This document shows, piece by piece, positions 18,433 to 34,210 of a DNA stretch of 64,000 bases; position 1 is the first letter of the stretch; every line of letters starts with the position of its first letter. The position numbers were made by a program, and so were the translations under genes. The notes below the pieces were generated by a model, which was not told the DNA's origin, searched no databases, and saw only the letters and a program-made list of their open reading frames with translations. The DNA lies in NCBI GenBank assembly GCA_014238095.1, contig JABABT010000025.1, positions 39,460 to 103,459 of the forward strand, read 5' to 3'. The stretch comes from Candidatus Aenigmatarchaeota archaeon (GTDB lineage: Archaea; Aenigmatarchaeota; Aenigmatarchaeia; CG10238-14; SCSR01).

Positions 18433-18525
18433 AATAATTATATTTATTTTATATATAATTATATTTATTTTATATATAATTAATTTATTAAACTAATAAA
18501 ATAATTCATAATTGAGCCCAAGTAG

Positions 18526-18627
18526 TTGAGCCTGGTTAAAACGCCGCGCTCATAGTCTCTATGAGCTTCGACGCAAGGATGAGATAAGAAACGCGGAGGT
18601 CCGGGAGTTCAAATCTCCCCTTGGGCA
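18526..18627 (+). tRNA. tRNA(CAU) with ~36-nt intron after the anticodon loop (Met elongator or Ile2)
   Basis: Acceptor GCCCAAG/CTTGGGC, anticodon stem CCGCG/CGCGG, loop CTCATAG with anticodon CAT, T-arm GGGAG-TTCAAAT-CTCCC. Inserted sequence GTCTCTATGAGCTTCGACGCAAGGATGAGATAAGAA begins with a segment complementary to the anticodon loop (BHB-like). CCA is not encoded. Confidence 0.75.
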
Positions 18628-21192: not shown

Positions 21193-21203
21193 GTGACCGC
21201 CAA

Positions 21204-22758
<1,555 letters not shown>

Positions 22759-22794
22759 CATTTTAGAGAGAGATCTAGTGTGCAGCGCGAGTCA

Positions 22795-22806
22795 ACTGTC
22801 TTTAGG
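22795..22806 (+). other. 16S rRNA processing-stem 3' strand (actgtctttagg)
   Basis: Reverse complement of 21181-21192. Confidence 0.6.
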
Positions 22807-22952
22807 CATCAATACCATTCTGTTGAGGAAAATAACTAATTTATTTTTAATAATGATTAAATATTTTATCTAGATTTTAGAATAAACTATTTTTTGTATA
22901 ATAAATTATTTTTAATAATATTCTATAAAATTTATCATTTGTAAATGTTTAT

Positions 22953-24413
22953 ATGTTAATAATTCCATTTAATTTTGTGAAAAAGATTAAAAGAACTTCA
23001 AAAAATAAAATGAAAGATGTTTTAAATTTGAGAAAAGAAATTAGTCATGTTATGGAAAAGAAATTTCATATAAGTACTATGATAATTTTAGCTGCTGTAA
23101 TTATTGTTATTGGTTCTTCTCTAATATATATTACTGGAATACAAGCAGGAATGGAAATGAAATTGGATAGTAAAATTATATCAAATTATAATGAAGTACA
23201 ATCAGAAATAGAAAAACATGAAAACAAAAAACCAATTTTAGTTGAAGAATATTATGTAAAAGAATTAGTTAAAAAAGGTATTTTATTATATGATTCTATT
23301 GGTTCAGTAGAAGCATTTAAACAAATATCAGATTCTAATGGTGAATTTATTGAAGGAGAAAAATATCTTTTTGTTCTTAGTACTGATGGAATTATTAAAG
23401 CTCATCCAGCATTTCCTAATTTAATTGGAATAAATCGTACAAATAATGTTGATATAGATGGTTATTCTTATAGTAATGCTATTCTAAATATGGCAACAGA
23501 AAAAGGGGCTTGGATAAGATATAAATTTGAAAATCCAGTTTCAGGTCAAATAGAAGGTAAGAAAACTTGGGTAGTTAGACATGATGATTACATATTTGGT
23601 GTTGGTATTTATGAAGATATTAATAAAATAGATATACAAGATATAGAAGCTAAAGAAATTATTCAACAATCAATTATATTATTTAATAAATATGGAAAAG
23701 AAAAATCATTTGAAATATTTAATAATCCAGAAAATGGTTTTGTTAAAGGTGAACAATATTTATTTGTGATTAATACAGATGGAATTATTGAAGTTCATAC
23801 TGTTTTCCCTAATTTAATCGGTAATGATTATTCTAATTTTATTGATCAAGATAATTATAATGTTGGTTCTGCTATTCTAAATATAGTAACAGAAAAAGGG
23901 GCTTGGATAAGATATAAATTTGAAAATCCAGTTTCAGGTCAAATAGAAAATAAGAAAATTTGGGCAGTTAGAAATAATGATTATATATTTGCATGGAGTA
24001 TTTATGGGGAAGATGTTGAAAGATTAGAAGCAGAAGAAATACAAGCTAAAGAATTTGTAAAACAAGGAATTATATTATTTAATAAATATGGAAAAGAAAA
24101 ATCATTTGAAATATTTAATAATCCAGAAAATGGTTTTGTTAAAGGTGAACAATATTTATTTGTTGAAGATTATAATGGATTTACACGTGTAATACCAGCA
24201 TTTCCACAATATATAGATGTAGATTTCAGTGAATATAGAGATTCTGATGGATTACTTGTACAAGAAATAATTCAAAAGGCTGCAACTATTAATGGTGGAT
24301 GGGCATATTATAAATTTGATAATCCTTCTGGTGATATTGGACAAAAGAAAAGTTGGGTAGTAAAAAGAGGCGATTATATATTTGGTTCTGGTGTATATAT
24401 AGGTCCAGCTTAA
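22953..24413 (+). CDS. membrane-anchored protein with three tandem Cache-like (sCache_2-type) extracellular sensor domains; no output domain
   Basis: N-terminal TM segment (MIILAAVIIVIGSSLIYI), then three ~130-aa repeats each with Y[LI]FV..TDG....HP.FPNLIG...D.D and G.W..YKF.NP..G....KK.WV motifs. Start codon choice is uncertain; alternative Met residues lie at aa 20 and 34. Confidence 0.55.
   Translation: MLIIPFNFVKKIKRTSKNKMKDVLNLRKEISHVMEKKFHISTMIILAAVIIVIGSSLIYITGIQAGMEMKLDSKIISNYNEVQSEIEKHENKKPILVEEYYVKELVKKGILLYDSIGSVEAFKQISDSNGEFIEGEKYLFVLSTDGIIKAHPAFPNLIGINRTNNVDIDGYSYSNAILNMATEKGAWIRYKFENPVSGQIEGKKTWVVRHDDYIFGVGIYEDINKIDIQDIEAKEIIQQSIILFNKYGKEKSFEIFNNPENGFVKGEQYLFVINTDGIIEVHTVFPNLIGNDYSNFIDQDNYNVGSAILNIVTEKGAWIRYKFENPVSGQIENKKIWAVRNNDYIFAWSIYGEDVERLEAEEIQAKEFVKQGIILFNKYGKEKSFEIFNNPENGFVKGEQYLFVEDYNGFTRVIPAFPQYIDVDFSEYRDSDGLLVQEIIQKAATINGGWAYYKFDNPSGDIGQKKSWVVKRGDYIFGSGVYIGPA
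23478..24265 (+). repeat. intragenic tandem direct repeat, two ~393-396-bp units with long near-identical stretches
   Basis: gctattctaaatat..gaaaaaggggcttggataagatataaatttgaaaatccagtttcaggtcaaatagaa occurs at 23478/23499 and again at 23871/23892. tatattatttaataaatatggaaaagaaaaatcatttgaaatatttaataatccagaaaatggttttgttaaaggtgaacaatatttatttgt occurs at 23675 and 24071. Confidence 0.85.
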
Positions 24414-24476
24414 TATAAATTTATTATATAAATTTAAATATAACTTTATTAATTAATAATAATTAAATATTTTTAT

Positions 24477-24550
24477 GGGCCGGTAGTTAAGCTCGGTATA
24501 ACGCCCGCTTTGCAAGCGGGAGGCCACGGGTTCAAATCCCGTCCGGTCCA
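24477..24550 (+). tRNA. tRNA-Ala (UGC)
   Basis: Acceptor GGGCCGG/CCGGTCC with a G3:U70 identity pair. Anticodon stem CCCGC/GCGGG, loop TTTGCAA, T-arm ACGGG-TTCAAAT-CCCGT, discriminator A. CCA is not encoded. Confidence 0.85.
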
Positions 24551-24588
24551 TATATAACCTTTTTCTTATGAAAACATAATATAATACA

Positions 24589-27234
24589 ATGAAAAATTCA
24601 CATAGTATAAAAATAAAAGATGTTTTTAATGAATTGAAAACAACAAAAATGGGTCTTAATGAAAATGGAGTAAAATCAAAATTAATAAAATTTGGATTAA
24701 ATAAAATTGAAGAAAAACCTAGTAAAACACCATTTCAGATTTTCCTATCACAATTTAAAAGCATATTAATTATAGTATTGATAATCGCAGCTGTAATATC
24801 TTTTTCATTAGGAGAATTACCAAATGGTATAGCAATTAGTGTAATTATAATTCTGAATTCTTTATTAGGATTTCACCAAGAATATAAAGCAGAAAAATCT
24901 ATTGAAGCTCTAAGAAAACTTATAATTCCTAAAGTAACTGTTTATCGTAATAAATTACCAATTGAATTACCTGCGAATCAATTAGTTCCAGGAGATATTA
25001 TTGATATTGAAGAAGGTAATAGAATTCCTGCTGATGTAAGAATTTTTGAATCTATAAATTTAAAAATTGATGAATCAACATTAACTGGTGAATCTATTCC
25101 AGTCAAAAAAACTACTGAAGTATTGAAAATGGATATTGAAATTGGAGATAAAACTAATATGGCTTTTATGGGTACATTAGTTCAAACTGGAAGAGGAAAA
25201 GGTGTTGTAGTTAATACTGGAATGAAATCTGAACTTGGAAAAATTGCTTCATTAATACAAGAAAGAGAAAAACCAACACCTCTTCAAATTAAATTAAATA
25301 AATTTGGCTTTAATATTGGGAAAATAACATTAATTATTGCAGCAATAATTTTTGGTATGGGATATTTTTTGGGATTGGAACTTTTTATAATATTTTTAAC
25401 AAGTATTAGTTTGGCTGTTGCTATAATACCTGAAGGTTTGGCTGCTGTTGTTGCACTTACTTTATCTATAGGTACAAAGAAGATGTTAAAGAAAAATGTA
25501 GTTGTAAGGAAACTTGCATCAGTAGAAGCTCTTGGTTCTGCTACTGTGATATGTTCAGATAAAACTGGAACTATGACATCAAATCAAATAACTGTAGAAA
25601 AAATATGGACTAATGGAAAAATAATTGATGTTACAGGTATTGGCTTCGAACCTAAAGGTGAATTTAAAATAGATAATAATATTATTGATTCTACTAAAAA
25701 TAAAAATCTTCAAAATATTTTCAGAATATCTAAAATGTGTAATAATGCTATATTGAAAAATGAAGATAAATGGAAAATTATTGGAGATCCAACAGAAGGT
25801 GCATTAAAGGTTCTTTCAATTAAAGGAAAATTTAACGAAAATTTTAATAGAATATATGAAATTCCTTTTTCATCAGAAAGAAAAAGAATGACAACAATTC
25901 ATGAAATTAATTCAGAATATTTTGCATTTTGTAAAGGTGCACCAGAAATTATTTTAGATAATTGTAAAATAAATAATTATGAAAAAGAAAAAATTATGAA
26001 AATTATACATAATTTCGCTGGAAATGGAATGCGTGTTCTAGGATTGGCATATAAACCTATAAAGAAACCTTTTAATGATGTTGAAATTGAAAAAGGAATG
26101 ATTTTTGTTGGATTAGTTGGAATGATAGACCCTCCAAGAGAAGATATTAAAGAATCTATTAAAACATGTAGAAATGCTGGAATAAGAACAATGATGTTAA
26201 CTGGAGATCATAAATTAACTGCAAAATCTATAGCAAATGAAATTGGAATTAATGGAGATGTTATAACTGGTATTGAAATTGATAAAATGAGTGAAGAAGA
26301 ATTTATAGATAAAGTAAAATATGTAAATGTATTTGCAAGAATTTCTCCTGAACATAAATTAAGAATTGTAAAAATTTTACAAAATATGGGAGAAATAGTT
26401 GCAGTTACTGGTGATGGTGTTAATGATGCTCCAGCATTAAAAGCAGCAGAAATTGGAATTGCAATGGGTATAAAGGGTAGTGATGTTTCAAAAGAATCTT
26501 CTGAAATGATTTTACTTGATGATAATTTTTCATCTATTGTTGGTGCTATTAAGGAAGGTAGAGGTATTTATGATAATATAGAAAAATTTATTAGATATTT
26601 ATTAGCTACAAATACTGGAGAAGTTTTATTCATAACAATTCCAATAATTTTTTTATTTTCACCTGAATTATTACCAACATTATTACCTGTTCAATTATTA
26701 TGGATTAATTTAGTAACTGATGGATTACCAGCATTATCTCTAGGTATAGATCCAAAAAATAAAGATATAATGAAAAATAGACCACATAATCCAAAAGAAA
26801 CTATATTGAAAAATAATTGGTCTTTTGTTTTAATAGGAGGAGTAGCTGCATTCTTAGTAACATTTTTTGCATTTATGATGTTTATTGATAGTGGAATAGA
26901 TAAAGCTAGAACAATTTCATTTTCTACTCTTGTAATATTTGAACTTTTCTTTGTGTTTAATTGTCGTTCTGAAACTAAGGGTATATTTAGATATAATCCA
27001 ATAAACAATAAATGGTTATTAATTGCGATAGTTGCATCTATATTATTACAATTATTAATTGTTCAAGTAGAATTCTTTAATCAATTCTTAGGAACAGTAC
27101 CATTAGAATTAAATGAATGGCTAATTGTATTTGGTTTAGGTAGTTTAGGATTTTTATTAATACCTGAATTAATTAATAAAATAAAAAATATATTAATAAA
27201 AAATAAAAGAAAAATTAAAATTAAATTTTTATGA
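24589..27234 (+). CDS. P-type cation-transporting ATPase (P2-type, Ca2+/Mg2+-like)
   Basis: 881 aa with CSDKTGTMT phosphorylation motif, TGDGVNDAPALKAAEIGIAMG, and 10-TM topology. Confidence 0.85.
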   Translation: MKNSHSIKIKDVFNELKTTKMGLNENGVKSKLIKFGLNKIEEKPSKTPFQIFLSQFKSILIIVLIIAAVISFSLGELPNGIAISVIIILNSLLGFHQEYKAEKSIEALRKLIIPKVTVYRNKLPIELPANQLVPGDIIDIEEGNRIPADVRIFESINLKIDESTLTGESIPVKKTTEVLKMDIEIGDKTNMAFMGTLVQTGRGKGVVVNTGMKSELGKIASLIQEREKPTPLQIKLNKFGFNIGKITLIIAAIIFGMGYFLGLELFIIFLTSISLAVAIIPEGLAAVVALTLSIGTKKMLKKNVVVRKLASVEALGSATVICSDKTGTMTSNQITVEKIWTNGKIIDVTGIGFEPKGEFKIDNNIIDSTKNKNLQNIFRISKMCNNAILKNEDKWKIIGDPTEGALKVLSIKGKFNENFNRIYEIPFSSERKRMTTIHEINSEYFAFCKGAPEIILDNCKINNYEKEKIMKIIHNFAGNGMRVLGLAYKPIKKPFNDVEIEKGMIFVGLVGMIDPPREDIKESIKTCRNAGIRTMMLTGDHKLTAKSIANEIGINGDVITGIEIDKMSEEEFIDKVKYVNVFARISPEHKLRIVKILQNMGEIVAVTGDGVNDAPALKAAEIGIAMGIKGSDVSKESSEMILLDDNFSSIVGAIKEGRGIYDNIEKFIRYLLATNTGEVLFITIPIIFLFSPELLPTLLPVQLLWINLVTDGLPALSLGIDPKNKDIMKNRPHNPKETILKNNWSFVLIGGVAAFLVTFFAFMMFIDSGIDKARTISFSTLVIFELFFVFNCRSETKGIFRYNPINNKWLLIAIVASILLQLLIVQVEFFNQFLGTVPLELNEWLIVFGLGSLGFLLIPELINKIKNILIKNKRKIKIKFL

Positions 27235-27410
27235 TTTATGAATTTTGGTATGGTAAATTCTTAGAATATAAAAGTTAATAATAATTTGTAGAAATTTTAT
27301 AAAATAAATTAATTAATGAATTATAATATTTACTTAAAATTTTATTTGAAGAAAATAAATATTTTTCATAATTAAGTATAATCCTAAATACCTAACATCT
27401 AATATATTTA

Positions 27411-27743
27411 TTAATAAATATCTCTATGTGTTTCATACATAAAACTAGCATCTTTATTTAATTTTTTTATTTCATTTTTGACAAAATTAAAAATTTGATT
27501 TGAATTAACTTGTTTTTTCTTCTCAATCCATTTAATAGAATTCTTCATAATTAATTTACTCAATTTTCTAGCTTCAGAATCTTTCATATGTGAAGATAAA
27601 CATGCAAAATAACATGTCGAATATATTTTTTTGGAATTAAATATTTCAAAATTCCCTTTTCTTTTTACAATATGTATATCTAAAATATTAGATTTACGAA
27701 TCTTTTTATTTTTATTGTTATTTTTTGATTTATTTAATATCAT
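27411..27743 (-). CDS. ATP-cone domain protein
   Basis: 110 aa with a basic N-terminus. IHIVKRKGNFEIFNSKKIY....ARKLSKLIMKN resembles the ATP-cone of NrdR/RNR regulators. Confidence 0.45.
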   Translation of the reverse strand: MILNKSKNNNKNKKIRKSNILDIHIVKRKGNFEIFNSKKIYSTCYFACLSSHMKDSEARKLSKLIMKNSIKWIEKKKQVNSNQIFNFVKNEIKKLNKDASFMYETHRDIY

Positions 27744-27746
27744 TTT

Positions 27747-28457
27747 CTAACCTAAATTAATTGTACCATTTGAAATTAAAATTAATAACCAACCCATTCC
27801 AATTAACATTAATCCTATTAATAATCTCATGAAACCTCTATTATTCATTTTCCATTTTTTAATTTTATGTAATTTAACACCTGCTCCTACAAGTCCAAGT
27901 ATTATAATTAATGGTGCTACAAAAACAACATTATAAAGAATTAATAATAATAAAGCTGTGAAATCAAAATTTATTGAAAGTAAAGTAATTATCGCAAGGT
28001 AAGGTGCACCTGTACATGGAAGTTCAACAGCTGATACAAACATACCAAGTAAAATTACACCAGGTATACTAACATTATTAGTCATTTCATGTATTTTTTT
28101 TGTGAACATAGAAGGAATTGTTAAAGAGAAACCTTTACCATACCAAAAGAAATCTTTTATTTCAAATATACCTGCAATTATAATTACTGATCCTACTATA
28201 ATTGAAATATATTCTGTAATTACAAGAGGTAAATCTGTTAAGAAATATAATAAACCTACTCCAGCTGCAAGATATGTACCAAAAACTGCAAGAATATAAA
28301 AACTACCAAGAACAAGCATTTTTTTTACACTATTTTTACCAGACATTATTACAGAAACCATTAAAATTAATACACCAATTGCACATGGATTAATTGAATC
28401 TATTATTGCTGTTGTTAAAATAATACCCAATGAAGGTAAGAATGCTTCAACTGCCAT
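27747..28457 (-). CDS. ccdA: CcdA/DsbD-family thiol:disulfide interchange transmembrane protein
   Basis: Polytopic membrane protein. It has IDSINPCAIGVL and a second Cys in a later TM (VELPCTGAPY), the typical CcdA pair. Confidence 0.65.
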   Translation of the reverse strand: MAVEAFLPSLGIILTTAIIDSINPCAIGVLILMVSVIMSGKNSVKKMLVLGSFYILAVFGTYLAAGVGLLYFLTDLPLVITEYISIIVGSVIIIAGIFEIKDFFWYGKGFSLTIPSMFTKKIHEMTNNVSIPGVILLGMFVSAVELPCTGAPYLAIITLLSINFDFTALLLLILYNVVFVAPLIIILGLVGAGVKLHKIKKWKMNNRGFMRLLIGLMLIGMGWLLILISNGTINLG

Positions 28458-28459
28458 TT

Positions 28460-29287
28460 TTATACCATCTCCCTTAATTCATTATTTGTGATTGAAATTC
28501 TATTAGTTTCACATATTTTATCGGTTTTGTTTTTCACTTCATCAAATTCAAAAATAATACAATCTCCTGGTGGAATTGTACTATATGGAGACAAAATATA
28601 ATCAGAAGGATTTTCTATTTTTTCTTGTATATAAATCCAATTTTTTAAATCATTTGGATTTATTATTTTATAAACAAATACCTGAAATTCTGATGTTTTC
28701 CCATTACAATCATTTCCATTTATATTCAATATTCCTTGATTTGTTGGTACAATAAATGATTCATTTGTAATAGATCCTCCAATTACATCAAAAAAACTAT
28801 GTAAATTTATGTGTTCATTTTTAACAACTAAACCTTCAACATGAATTCTATCATCACCATGTTCATGTAATACAGGTGTTCCAATTCTATTTGAAAATCC
28901 AGTTGGATTTTTAATATCTATTTTTTCTCCACAATTCCAAATTTCAAAATCAGCATGCCAATGTACTGGTCCTCCTGTTACTGAATTTAAATTTAAATAA
29001 ATAGTTCCACCTGTAATAAATAATGTTATTATTATTGTAGGTGTAATTATACAAATGAAAAATATTTTCTTTAAATTTTCTTTTTTTGTTTTATAAAATA
29101 TAGAAATTATTGTAAATATTGAAATTATTATAGAACCAATAATTATAAAATTTACAGAATAATTTGTAATTAAATTATCAATTCTTTTTTCATTTTGATT
29201 AATATCTGATTGATGTGATAAAACTATTGGTAGTGATAAAAACATAAATGAAAAAAATATTAAAATAAAAATATTTTTATTTAACAA
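28460..29287 (-). CDS. membrane-anchored extracytoplasmic protein with His-rich (HWHAD, HEHGDD) and 4-Cys domain
   Basis: Two N-terminal TM helices, then a soluble domain with HxH motifs and four Cys. The annotated start is TTG; an in-frame ATG lies at codon 15. Confidence 0.45.
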   Translation of the reverse strand: MLNKNIFILIFFSFMFLSLPIVLSHQSDINQNEKRIDNLITNYSVNFIIIGSIIISIFTIISIFYKTKKENLKKIFFICIITPTIIITLFITGGTIYLNLNSVTGGPVHWHADFEIWNCGEKIDIKNPTGFSNRIGTPVLHEHGDDRIHVEGLVVKNEHINLHSFFDVIGGSITNESFIVPTNQGILNINGNDCNGKTSEFQVFVYKIINPNDLKNWIYIQEKIENPSDYILSPYSTIPPGDCIIFEFDEVKNKTDKICETNRISITNNELREMV

Positions 29288-29421
29288 AATTCACATACCC
29301 CTGATTTTTTAGATTTATTTTTTCCATAAGATTTTATACAATTTGATGAACAAAAAGATTTTCCAGATCTTAATGTAAAATCTTCAGTTTTTTTACCACA
29401 TTCAAAACACTTTTTTATCAT
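29281..29421 (-). CDS. small TRASH/YHS-like metal-binding zinc-ribbon protein
   Basis: Hand-translated 46 aa: MIKKCFECGKKTEDFTLRSGKSFCSSNCIKSYGKNKSKKSGVCEFC. The C-x2-C-G...F-C-S-x2-C pattern matches TRASH. Its stop overlaps the start of the upstream gene. Confidence 0.5.
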   Translation of the reverse strand: MIKKCFECGKKTEDFTLRSGKSFCSSNCIKSYGKNKSKKSGVCEFC

Positions 29422-29872
29422 ATATTTAATTAGTAAATATTATTTAAATTTTTATGTTTTATTGATTTATTTAAAAAAAATAGCCATTTTTTATTATTTA
29501 TAAAAAAAACCAAATTGTATAGTTATTGGTAAAGTTTTAAAATTTAGTTTATCAACAAAATCAAACCATACTAAAGCTTTAAATATATTCATCTCCATTT
29601 TATTAAAACGCGGTGTAGTATAAATGGTAGATAATCTTCCATTGATCCTTTAACTTAGTGATGATTGGTTTTCTCTTTCACATTAATTTGCGTTAGAGAA
29701 TTGGACACCTTAAGAGCTAAATAAAATAAGGGATTATTTTTAACATCGTGATACAAATGTATGCAAATCTACAACTGCTGATTGTAGGTTGAAGAGTGGA
29801 TAGGCTGATGATTTTAAATTCGACTCTGATAATATATGAAGAGCGAACTGTCTATAAGAGGCCATTATTATA

Positions 29873-29898
29873 ATGATACTATCATAGGATTAAGTTGG
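29873..29898 (+). other. 23S rRNA processing-stem 5' strand (atgatactatcataggattaagttgg)
   Basis: A 25/26-nt reverse complement is present at 33156-33180. Confidence 0.7.
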
Positions 29899-33155
<3,257 letters not shown>

Positions 33156-33241: not shown

Positions 33242-34210
33242 TTAAATTTTCTTATATTTCTTATCTAACCAAAAAAACATAGAAATACCTATTACAAATA
33301 AACAAATTAATAATATGAAGTAACTATATTCATTTTGAATTTCCGGTATATTTACAAAATTTGTTCCATATATTCCTGTAATAAATGTAAGTGGTAAAAA
33401 TATTGTTGCTATTACTGTAAGTTGTTTTGATACCTGACCCATTGAATTTACTTGAATGGATGAATAAGTTTCAAATATACTTCCAATTAATTCACGATGA
33501 GAATCTATATTCAAAGAGAATTTATAAATATGATCATAAATGTCACGGAAATAAATTAAAATATCTTCTCTAATAAAAGGAAACTCTCCATGAGAAATTT
33601 TATTAATAAGATCTCTTTCTGGAACAATAATTTTTCTAATTTGTGATATTTCTTTTCTATGTTCACTTAATTTTCTTAATGTATTTTCTGTTTTTCCAGA
33701 AAATAAATTGTCTTCAAGTTGATCTAATTCTGTATCTAAATCATCAATTATTTTATTAAATGTGTCAACTTCTATATCAATAATATTATGCATTATATTT
33801 TCAGGACCATGTTTTATAATAATATTCTGATTAATTATTCTTTTTCTATATTCTTCGATTTTTTCTATTCCTTCATTATGAAATGTTATTATAAAATTTT
33901 TACCTAAACAAAAATTGATTTCATTTAATCCTATTATTTTTTTATCTTTTTCATAAAAAATTGCATGAAAAATAAGAAAAATATATTTTTTATCAACAAT
34001 ATCTACTTTAGGTAATGGATTATCTGATTTCATGTCTTCTATAGTTAATGGGTGTATATGAAAATTTCTTTGTAAAAAATTATAATCATTATCTTTTGGA
34101 TTAACAACATCAACCCAAATAAAAGTATTTTCATCTTCTATTTTTTTTACATCTATATGATTCATTAATGTACTTGGTTTACCATTTTTTACTAAAATCA
34201 TTCTTAACAT
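33242..34210 (-). CDS. corA: CorA-family Mg2+/Co2+ transporter (GTN variant of GMN motif)
   Basis: 322 aa with two C-terminal TM helices. YGTNFVNIPE lies in the loop where CorA carries YGMNF. Confidence 0.7.
   Translation of the reverse strand: MLRMILVKNGKPSTLMNHIDVKKIEDENTFIWVDVVNPKDNDYNFLQRNFHIHPLTIEDMKSDNPLPKVDIVDKKYIFLIFHAIFYEKDKKIIGLNEINFCLGKNFIITFHNEGIEKIEEYRKRIINQNIIIKHGPENIMHNIIDIEVDTFNKIIDDLDTELDQLEDNLFSGKTENTLRKLSEHRKEISQIRKIIVPERDLINKISHGEFPFIREDILIYFRDIYDHIYKFSLNIDSHRELIGSIFETYSSIQVNSMGQVSKQLTVIATIFLPLTFITGIYGTNFVNIPEIQNEYSYFILLICLFVIGISMFFWLDKKYKKI

Follow-up and report, generated by a model that had tools for sequence, protein, structure and literature searches.

Cache domains have been stated to occur exclusively in proteins with output domains (PMC4822843). 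The sCache_2 chemoreceptor sensors, which include PscD-SD (5g4y), Adeh_3718 (4k08), the V. parahaemolyticus MCP (2qhk/4exo), and TlpB (3ub6), carry a single module between two transmembrane (TM) helices and have HAMP/MCP output. In PscD, the bound carboxylate is hydrogen-bonded by Tyr90, His103, Tyr143, and Lys156 while two Trp residues (Trp92 and Trp145) sandwich the ligand, and sCache_2 domains have been argued to be largely specialized for carboxylates (PMC5062169). The two-module dCache_2 domain (PF08269) is thought to derive from a duplication of sCache_2 (PMC4822843). Cache domains without enzymatic output have been described in stand-alone genes that lie in predicted operons with prokaryotic ligand-gated channels and in the alpha2-delta subunit of animal Ca2+ channels, and a partner protein has been proposed for these (PMC549065). 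Here, we describe a gene in a 64,000-nucleotide (nt) stretch of Candidatus Aenigmatarchaeota archaeon contig JABABT010000025.1 (GCA_014238095.1), hereafter the window, to which coordinates refer. As judged from profile matches, the encoded protein of 486 amino acids (aa) is a membrane-anchored array of three sCache_2 modules without an output domain. It is most likely a surface binder for small carboxylate-bearing molecules and not a self-contained receptor.

Domain architecture and predicted topology

Comparison of the whole protein with Pfam placed sCache_2 (PF17200) in three stretches (1.5e-31, 109.8 bits) and, over all 486 aa, yielded no domain other than Cache. When scored singly, each of the three repeats of ~130 aa lies above the sCache_2 gathering cut-off of 25 bits (R1 47.3, R2 39.2, and R3 35.8 bits), and repeat 1 matches the hidden Markov model (HMM) of the family described below with an independent E-value of 1.9e-41. 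The open reading frame (ORF) ends 1 aa past the repeat 3 envelope, and the Pfam scan gave no cytoplasmic transmitter after the last Cache module, which leaves the protein outside the receptor class. An earlier reading of this DNA from its letters alone (the sequence-only reading) had described a triple Cache protein with one N-terminal TM helix and no output domain. This description is borne out by the repeat scores, by the Cache fold of the structural model, by a lone hydrophobic segment at aa 40-63, and by the position of the stop codon. The gene and its parts are as follows.

22953..24413, plus strand: ORF of 486 aa, stop codon included, anchored triple sCache_2 protein (ORF listing, Pfam)
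22953..23069, plus strand: basic N-terminal tail, aa 1-39, predicted to be cytoplasmic (charge; predicted local distance difference test score, pLDDT, below 50 in the AlphaFold2, AF2, model)
23070..23141, plus strand: predicted single TM anchor, aa 40-63, ISTMIILAAVIIVIGSSLIYITGI, N-in/C-out (hydropathy, positive-inside rule)
23142..23237, plus strand: acidic, putatively helical stalk, aa 64-95, from the anchor to repeat 1 (AF2 helix 73-89, low confidence)
23238..23624, plus strand: repeat 1 (R1), aa 96-224, sCache_2 module with the full carboxylate tetrad (Pfam, family HMM, PscD mapping)
23631..24017, plus strand: repeat 2 (R2), aa 227-355, chimeric sCache_2 module with R3-like N-terminal helices and first strand and an R1-like core (sliding identity, Pfam)
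24027..24407, plus strand: repeat 3 (R3), aa 359-485, sCache_2 module with a seemingly degenerate pocket (Pfam, 4k08 alignment, column mapping)

Residues 1-39 contain 11 Lys and Arg against 3 Asp and Glu, a net charge of +8 ahead of the anchor helix, while aa 64-100, which include the stalk, contain 5 against 8. Because a basic tail precedes the helix and an acidic stretch follows it, we predict an N-in/C-out topology in which ~420 residues would be extracellular. The anchor holds the sole 19-residue windows with a Kyte-Doolittle mean above 1.6 (peak 2.6), and no second TM helix was found in the protein, this being its one hydrophobic segment. The start codon is uncertain, as other Met choices exist at aa 20 and aa 34, and the N-terminal 94 residues gave no match in Pfam. 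NCBIfam matches to MctS and CtpM were confined to the Cache part and fell far below the cut-off, and no solute-binding protein (SBP) profile in Pfam matched the protein. Exact look-up returned no identical record of the 486-aa product, and the family HMM detected no further paralog of the repeat within the window.

The dCache_2 model also matches, with 74.4 bits over R2-R3 against a cut-off of 26.5. However, R1 and R3 score higher as sCache_2 and R2 scores about equally on both models. The protein also has three modules instead of two, each with its own N-terminal helices in the structural model, and it has neither a second TM helix nor a receptor context.

The AF2 model, which was built on 34 homologs, consists of three domains that each begin with N-terminal helices and continue into five strands. 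R1 and R2 reach pLDDT values of roughly 80-95, and R3 reaches values of roughly 60-90. Foldseek searches of the PDB with single domains returned 4exo/2qhk at target-normalized TM-scores of 0.72-0.74, 4k08 at 0.71, and 5g4y at 0.69. The window protein and the sCache_2 chemoreceptor sensors hence belong to one profile family and share a modeled fold (0.69-0.74) and a predicted extracytoplasmic location, whereas the arrangement differs, with three modules after one anchor in place of one module between two helices.

Candidate carboxylate pockets

The pocket was mapped by aligning the repeats to 5g4y and 4k08 and by using the columns of the family alignment. The residues equivalent to the four PscD contacts are listed here.

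PscD Tyr90: Y138 in R1, Y269 in R2, Y401 in R3
PscD His103: H151 in R1, H282 in R2, I414 in R3
PscD Tyr143: Y190 in R1, Y321 in R2, Y453 in R3
PscD Lys156: K203 in R1, K334 in R2, K465 in R3

On this mapping, the Tyr/His/Tyr/Lys contacts of the chemoreceptor sensors are kept in R1 and R2, whose pockets look intact, while R3 lacks the His and looks degenerate. A further difference from PscD-type sensors is that the equivalents of the sandwiching residues Trp92 and Trp145 are Phe in R1, R2, and R3 (F140 and F192 in R1). Across the family, the full Y-H-Y-K set is present in 407 of 691 repeats (59%). Judged by these residues, the probable ligands would be short carboxylic acids or carboxylate-bearing compounds, for which R1 and R2 may be competent and R3 degenerate.

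A family of tandem sCache_2 arrays without transmitters

Apart from a single close relative (P0001), a word-indexed protein search returned 40 distant relatives that are 25-32% identical, and every one of these proteins is made up solely of Cache-clan domains. In a HMMER scan of 1.84 billion cluster representatives, 2358 proteins passed E<=1e-3 and 107 also passed E<=1e-30. We built a repeat HMM from the HMMER hits and counted the architecture of the family in the 188 best proteins. Each of these proteins has 2 to 16 repeats, three being the commonest number, in keeping with the copy-number variation that the sequence-only reading had expected among relatives, and one member (P0042) has 13 Pfam sCache_2 stretches in 2099 aa. 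In most of these proteins, only a few residues follow the last repeat, and in 172 of the 188 the flanks are too short for another domain. The N-termini of the homologs that we inspected carry a lipobox or a hydrophobic anchor, and a lipobox-like N-terminus (LIACGG, LVACGD, IAGACSG, or VATACSS) is present in at least 4 of the 8 bacterial members read.

We also scanned 24 members with Pfam, 16 of them picked for long non-repeat regions, and found no transmitter (kinase, MCP, GGDEF/EAL, or other) in any of the 24. The extra domains that did appear were SBP_bac_3, SBP_bac_5, Peripla_BP_6/ANF_receptor, and 5_nucleotid_C (5′-nucleotidase C-terminal), along with Laminin_G_3, Ig, SdrD_B, DUF285, PPC, and VCPO (vanadium-chloroperoxidase-like). 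By their profile assignments, these extra domains are without exception binding or enzyme modules that work outside the cytoplasm. Fusions of arrays to SBP_bac_3, SBP_bac_5, Peripla_BP_6/ANF_receptor, or the 5′-nucleotidase C-terminal domain were observed in P0097, P0114, P0148, P0098, P0173, P0073, and P0051, and these fusions hint at extracellular substrate capture by the arrays.

The window protein has the composition of the family, namely an anchor helix, three repeats, and a 1-aa tail. With P0002-P0187 it has in common the repeat unit (25-44% identity), the anchor or lipobox followed by an array of 2-16 repeats, and the lack of a transmitter. It differs from these arrays in being AT-rich, in its archaeal context, and in its location inside a split rRNA operon. 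Given that no transmitter was found among the 188 best members (172 with no room for one and 16 scanned), a binding scaffold, which the sequence-only reading had preferred, appears to be a better description than a receptor. Because the pocket residues, the predicted extracellular topology, the lack of a transmitter in the members examined, and the solute-binding fusions point in the same direction, we infer that the array is a multivalent binder of small acids.

Close relatives of the gene are few. A single-protein scan found none in species-representative genomes or JGI metagenomes, and such relatives turned up only in the protein index (P0001) and on a contig reached through a neighboring gene (L085, described below). 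The nearest relative that is not a strain variant is about 30-39% identical. In species-representative genomes, a profile-derived scan verified 526 loci or more. The best 80 of these (GTDB) are bacterial without exception; nearly all come from Dehalococcoidia or elsewhere in Chloroflexota, the rest being a few Acidimicrobiia and a single Limisphaerales locus. AT-richness sets the window protein and P0001 apart from the others of the 188 best proteins. Two members (MEM9621633.1 and MFO1057590.1) bear no NCBI name beyond "cache domain-containing protein," and our search of a literature library found nothing on output-less tandem Cache arrays other than a 2004 note on stand-alone Cache domains and ligand-gated channels (PMC549065). 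On these profile searches, the window gene belongs to a large family that is unstudied and in which it is an archaeal outlier.

The repeats of the family also turn over. The best pair of repeats within a protein has a median identity of 49% in the family and 55% in the window protein, and it reaches at least 90% in 12 of 187 proteins. Internal Cache repeats with 97-100% protein identity were seen in P0043, P0055, P0067, P0071, P0097, P0098, and P0173. As far as these identities indicate, very recent repeat expansion or conversion is recurrent in the family, far beyond the level of the window, and repeat turnover is a family trait in which the window protein is unremarkable.

Some of these observations could also be read as signs of a surface adhesin. 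In such a scenario, the Cache modules of an episymbiont would bind a polymer or metabolite on the host surface, and shuffling or conversion of the repeats would vary or extend a surface structure. The fusion of some members to Ig, Laminin_G_3, SdrD_B, DUF285, or PPC surface modules, the location of one homolog among Cadherin-like and Fn3 proteins, and the Aenigmarchaeota-like nature of the organism (see below) are consistent with host contact, as is the highly variable repeat number with near-identical internal repeats in 12 of 187 proteins, which is typical of surface repeat proteins. We nonetheless consider an adhesin improbable. The small-ligand pocket is conserved family-wide and fits small carboxylates better than a polymer, the conversion seen at this locus homogenizes the repeats and does not diversify them, and the named members are mostly Chloroflexota and other bacteria that are not known as episymbionts.

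A chimeric middle repeat within an old duplication

An exact-match scan of the gene revealed two runs of identical sequence, which lie in a duplicated unit as follows.

23672-23767 = 24068-24163, plus strand: 96-nt exact run, head of R2 and head of R3, offset 396
23495-23555 = 23888-23948, plus strand: 61-nt exact run, core of R1 and core of R2, offset 393
23375..23767, plus strand: duplicated unit 1 (393 nt), R1 core, linker 1, and R2 head
23768..24163, plus strand: duplicated unit 2 (396 nt), R2 core, linker 2, and R3 head

The junction between the units falls just past the conserved YLFV strand, and a codon-wise sliding comparison showed that the affinity of R2 switches sharply there. Upstream of the switch, the identity of R2 is 77-100% to R3 and ~50% to R1; downstream, the values are 60-100% for R1 and ~45% for R3. 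Repeat 2 is a chimera with an R3-like head and an R1-like body. The sequence-only reading had reported exact runs of >60 and >90 nt between repeats 2 and 3. Both runs exist, but only the longer one joins R2 to R3 while the shorter joins R1 to R2, and because both had been assigned to repeats 2 and 3 the chimeric nature of R2 was missed. R1 and R3 are 42% identical in amino acid sequence, and R1 is 44% identical to the repeats of other family proteins. On this comparison, R1 and R3 are old paralogs.

The two units are 82.6% identical in their best register (77% matches by Tandem Repeats Finder). Within the runs, the probability of all-identical codons, given the shared amino acids and the codon usage of the window, is ~1e-5 for the 96-nt run and ~2e-4 for the 61-nt run. 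Outside the runs, codons at shared residues are identical in 20 of 27 cases, where 18 are expected by chance. The duplication is an old one that carries short homogenized tracts. A recent, near-identical duplication of ~393 bp, the headline claim of the sequence-only reading, was rejected because of the unit identity and the chance-level codon identity outside the exact runs, where synonymous divergence is saturated. The alternative that it had allowed, homogenization, is upheld by runs that codon usage makes improbable and by the conversion-like polymorphism in sister assemblies described below. We propose that, in an ancestor with at least two repeats (R1 and R3), an unequal exchange just past the YLFV strand, involving R3 from one copy and R1 from another, produced the chimeric middle repeat. 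The units would then have diverged to about 80% identity, with short tracts still being overwritten by intragenic gene conversion.

Conversion-like variation among three assemblies

Two further contigs, L001 (ERZ23489137) and L085 (ERZ23489589), contain the same locus and encode an intact 487-aa product. They represent the same population as the window and come from two samples of one project. The gene is real and intact in three assemblies, which differ as shown here.

L085 versus window, 10.3 kb compared: 39 differences, 33 inside 23556-23671 and 6 outside
L001 versus window, 3.6 kb compared: 38 differences, 33 inside 23556-23671 and 5 outside
23556..23671, plus strand: polymorphic tract of 116 nt, which fills exactly the interval between the two exact runs
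23949..24067, plus strand: presumed conversion donor, end of R2 and linker 2 (276-nt repeat in register in L001/L085)

Outside the 116-nt tract, L085 is 99.94% identical to the window. Within it, L001 and L085 carry a copy of 23949-24067, which yields a 276-nt exact repeat at offset 396 and raises the identity of the units to 90.9%. The difference looks like a gene-conversion polymorphism. For the window version of the tract, the rest of the gene offers no donor, and this version keeps the more canonical motif, WVVRHDDYIFGVGIY, where the family consensus is WVVRHDGLIFGSGWY. For these two reasons we take the window allele to be the older state and the L001/L085 allele to be the probable product of conversion.

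These contigs also bear on whether the gene is a decaying remnant, a non-functional sensor that has lost its transmitter, or whether its third repeat is an assembly expansion of a two-repeat gene. The stop codon directly after repeat 3 and the loss of the pocket His in R3 could suggest decay, and exact runs of 61-96 nt in the window and 276 nt in the sister contigs can mislead short-read assemblers. Both possibilities seem very improbable to us. An intact three-repeat ORF of 486/487 aa is present in three independent contigs, and because all three agree on three repeats we do not regard the array as an artifact. Usual read lengths exceed the exact runs of the window, the many positions at which R2 departs from both R1 and R3 show that it is no collapsed or expanded copy, and a short C-terminus is the norm in a family whose members mostly end a few residues past the last repeat.

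A variable gene slot between 16S rRNA and tRNA-Ala

The sequence-only reading had located the gene in the spacer between 16S rRNA and tRNA-Ala, and rRNA and tRNA searches agree, with the two genes flanking the ORF. We compared this interval with the same interval on the contigs of three relatives (L086, L087, and L088).

21203..22758, plus strand: archaeal 16S rRNA gene, upstream boundary of the slot (Rfam SSU_rRNA_archaea, 1380.8 bits)
24476..24551, plus strand: tRNA-Ala(TGC), downstream boundary of the slot (ARAGORN, Rfam)
29906-33147: 23S rRNA gene (Rfam)
22759-24475, rRNA strand: slot content in the window, Cache array
L086 8040-8852, rRNA strand: slot content, HAD hydrolase
L087 6419-8002, rRNA strand: slot content, TMEM144/EamA-like transporter and a 180-aa ORF
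L088 6356-7622, rRNA strand: slot content, TMEM144/EamA-like transporter

All three relatives share the order 16S, tRNA-Ala, ATPase (plus strand), ATP-cone (minus strand), and SfLAP (minus strand), which runs on to the 23S rRNA gene in L087 and L088 while the L086 contig ends earlier. Within this clade, the space from 16S to tRNA-Ala acts as a variable gene slot whose lineage-specific cargo, in the window, is the Cache gene. In the window, the gap of 5.35 kb from tRNA-Ala to the 23S rRNA gene (24552-29905) holds the P-type IIA-like ATPase gene on the plus strand and three minus-strand genes, which encode an ATP-cone protein, an SfLAP-like protein, and a 275-aa ORF without a Pfam match. Because of these minus-strand genes, 16S and 23S do not form one simple operon. 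Unlinked rRNA genes are common in DPANN archaea, and both linked and unlinked arrangements have been reported for Aenigmarchaeota (PMC8997704). The ATPase downstream of the Cache gene is 61% identical to proteins named Candidatus Aenigmarchaeota, and since this neighbor is closest to that group, the organism is, by protein similarity, an Aenigmarchaeota-like DPANN archaeon.

The Cache gene was probably acquired laterally from bacteria. The named homologs are all bacterial, the window protein is, together with P0001, the only AT-rich member among the 188 best, and the gene has a host-like G+C content in a window with ~20-27% G+C outside the rRNA genes. These three points suggest that the transfer was an old one. 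A lateral origin is in line with published work, according to which transfer brought Cache domains to archaea (PMC4822843).

The neighboring ATPase brings up the possibility of a co-receptor or accessory subunit, in which the array senses and a separate membrane partner (a kinase, channel, or transporter) signals. The adjacent P-type Ca2+-type ATPase would be the obvious candidate; the P-type IIA-like ATPase gene begins 176 nt downstream on the same strand with only tRNA-Ala between, and the basic 39-aa cytoplasmic tail and anchor helix could touch such a partner. A precedent exists in the stand-alone Cache genes that share predicted operons with ligand-gated channels (PMC549065); compared with these and with alpha2-delta, the window protein has no VWA domain and no conserved partner. 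We rejected a functional tie to the ATPase, since three relatives without the Cache gene keep the ATPase and its downstream genes in the same order, and the adjacency therefore reflects the insertion site and is no evidence of function. Reading of five contigs and all-against-all clustering of the neighbors at 80 GTDB loci revealed no conserved partner gene above chance. In addition, the lipobox-like N-terminus in at least 4 of the 8 bacterial members read would leave no membrane-spanning segment for coupling. On balance, a co-receptor role is unlikely.

Several further observations concern the slot and the rRNA region. Scans for bacterial-type promoters and terminators returned fewer matches than shuffled sequences did, and such models do not apply to archaea. 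A TATA-like TCTATAAAA noted by eye ~27 nt upstream of the ATG was set aside as meaningless in roughly 80% A+T DNA, and a search for a 16S processing stem around the gene found only weak AT-rich inverted repeats. From the last base of the stop codon to just before tRNA-Ala, a 13-nt unit, ATATAAATTTATT, is repeated 3.1 times (24413-24451). These repeats could be copies of a TATA-like tRNA promoter, a terminator region, or the outcome of AT-rich slippage. The 16S match in L088 (2700-6355) spans 3.66 kb against a model of 1478 positions and has a lower score of 1079.8 bits, which implies about 2 kb of putative insertions or introns. The 23S rRNA genes measure 3242 nt in the window (29906-33147), 3503 nt in L087 (15016-18518), and 3514 nt in L088 (14016-17529), and because they exceed the archaeal model (2987 positions) they appear to contain insertions of ~250-530 nt that differ among the relatives. 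An Rfam tRNA match of 111-114 nt that ARAGORN did not call (window 18516-18627, L087 2766-2879, L088 534-644) is kept upstream of tRNA-His in the relatives and is probably an intron-containing archaeal tRNA. Directly after the 23S rRNA gene, on the opposite strand, lies a gene for a CorA Mg2+ transporter (window 33242-34210, minus strand; L087 18921-19880, minus strand), so that cation-transport genes flank the rRNA region, with the P-type ATPase inside and CorA after it.

Discussion

Taken together, we read the protein as a type-II anchored extracellular binder of small molecules at the cell surface, encoded by a probably laterally acquired slot cargo with homogenizing mosaic repeats, and we assign this reading as a whole a probability of about 60%. 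A type-II (N-in/C-out) anchor and a short stalk would present three extracellular sCache_2 modules with no transmitter, and the array would retain ligand on the cell surface, perhaps in the service of uptake or of a separately encoded partner. The bound ligand may be passed on to a transporter, simply become concentrated, or be reported to a partner; no partner gene is conserved near the family members.

Several points weigh against this reading. The pocket assignment draws on weak pairwise alignments (E 0.002-0.04) and on mapping through family columns, and the Trp pair that sandwiches the ligand in PscD is replaced by Phe here. The commonest neighbor of family members, an ABC ATPase at 15 of 80 loci, occurs at about chance level, and with no transporter or partner conserved beside the members, a delivery role like that of SBPs finds no genomic support. 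As for the lateral origin, the bacterial bias of the best 80 loci stems partly from search patterns derived from Chloroflexi, and most metagenomic hits carry no taxonomy, so that archaeal relatives could have been missed. Lastly, both contigs with the 276-nt repeat come from one project and were presumably assembled alike, and since a repeat of this length exceeds common read lengths, a shared, systematic path error of the assembler is possible.

The nearest analogy in role is to bacterial solute-binding proteins (SBP_bac_3/5 and Peripla_BP_6), which are likewise anchored, extracytoplasmic binders of small ligands without an output of their own. The likeness is one of role only, as solute-binding proteins have a Venus-flytrap fold and a gene beside a transporter, whereas the window protein has a Cache/PAS-like fold and no adjacent transporter genes. 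A bolder extension, which we offer as speculation and think unlikely to hold in full, is that output-less tandem sCache_2 arrays form an unrecognized class of extracytoplasmic capture proteins, Cache-fold counterparts of the solute-binding proteins that hold short organic acids at the surface of the cell. In the same scheme, one DPANN archaeon would have obtained such an array from bacteria and put it into the 16S/tRNA-Ala spacer, and the spacer would be a recurrent landing slot of this clade whose cargo, when on the rRNA strand, could ride on rRNA transcription.

No new mechanism is involved here, as the Cache domain, unlinked DPANN rRNA genes, and concerted evolution of repeats are already known. 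What is worth noting is the conversion polymorphism and the point made at the level of the family; the function we ascribe to the arrays is one that we infer. The locus provides a clean natural case of intragenic gene conversion seen as a polymorphism, and it documents a split archaeal rRNA operon with a variable gene slot in it. The family, with thousands of metagenomic hits, at least 526 loci, and 2-16 Cache modules per protein with no transmitter found, breaks the rule that Cache domains come with output domains. If the arrays bind small acids, part of the "sensory repertoire" that is counted by Cache domains would be capture or uptake machinery, and a metabolically reduced DPANN archaeon might use such a protein to scavenge metabolites.

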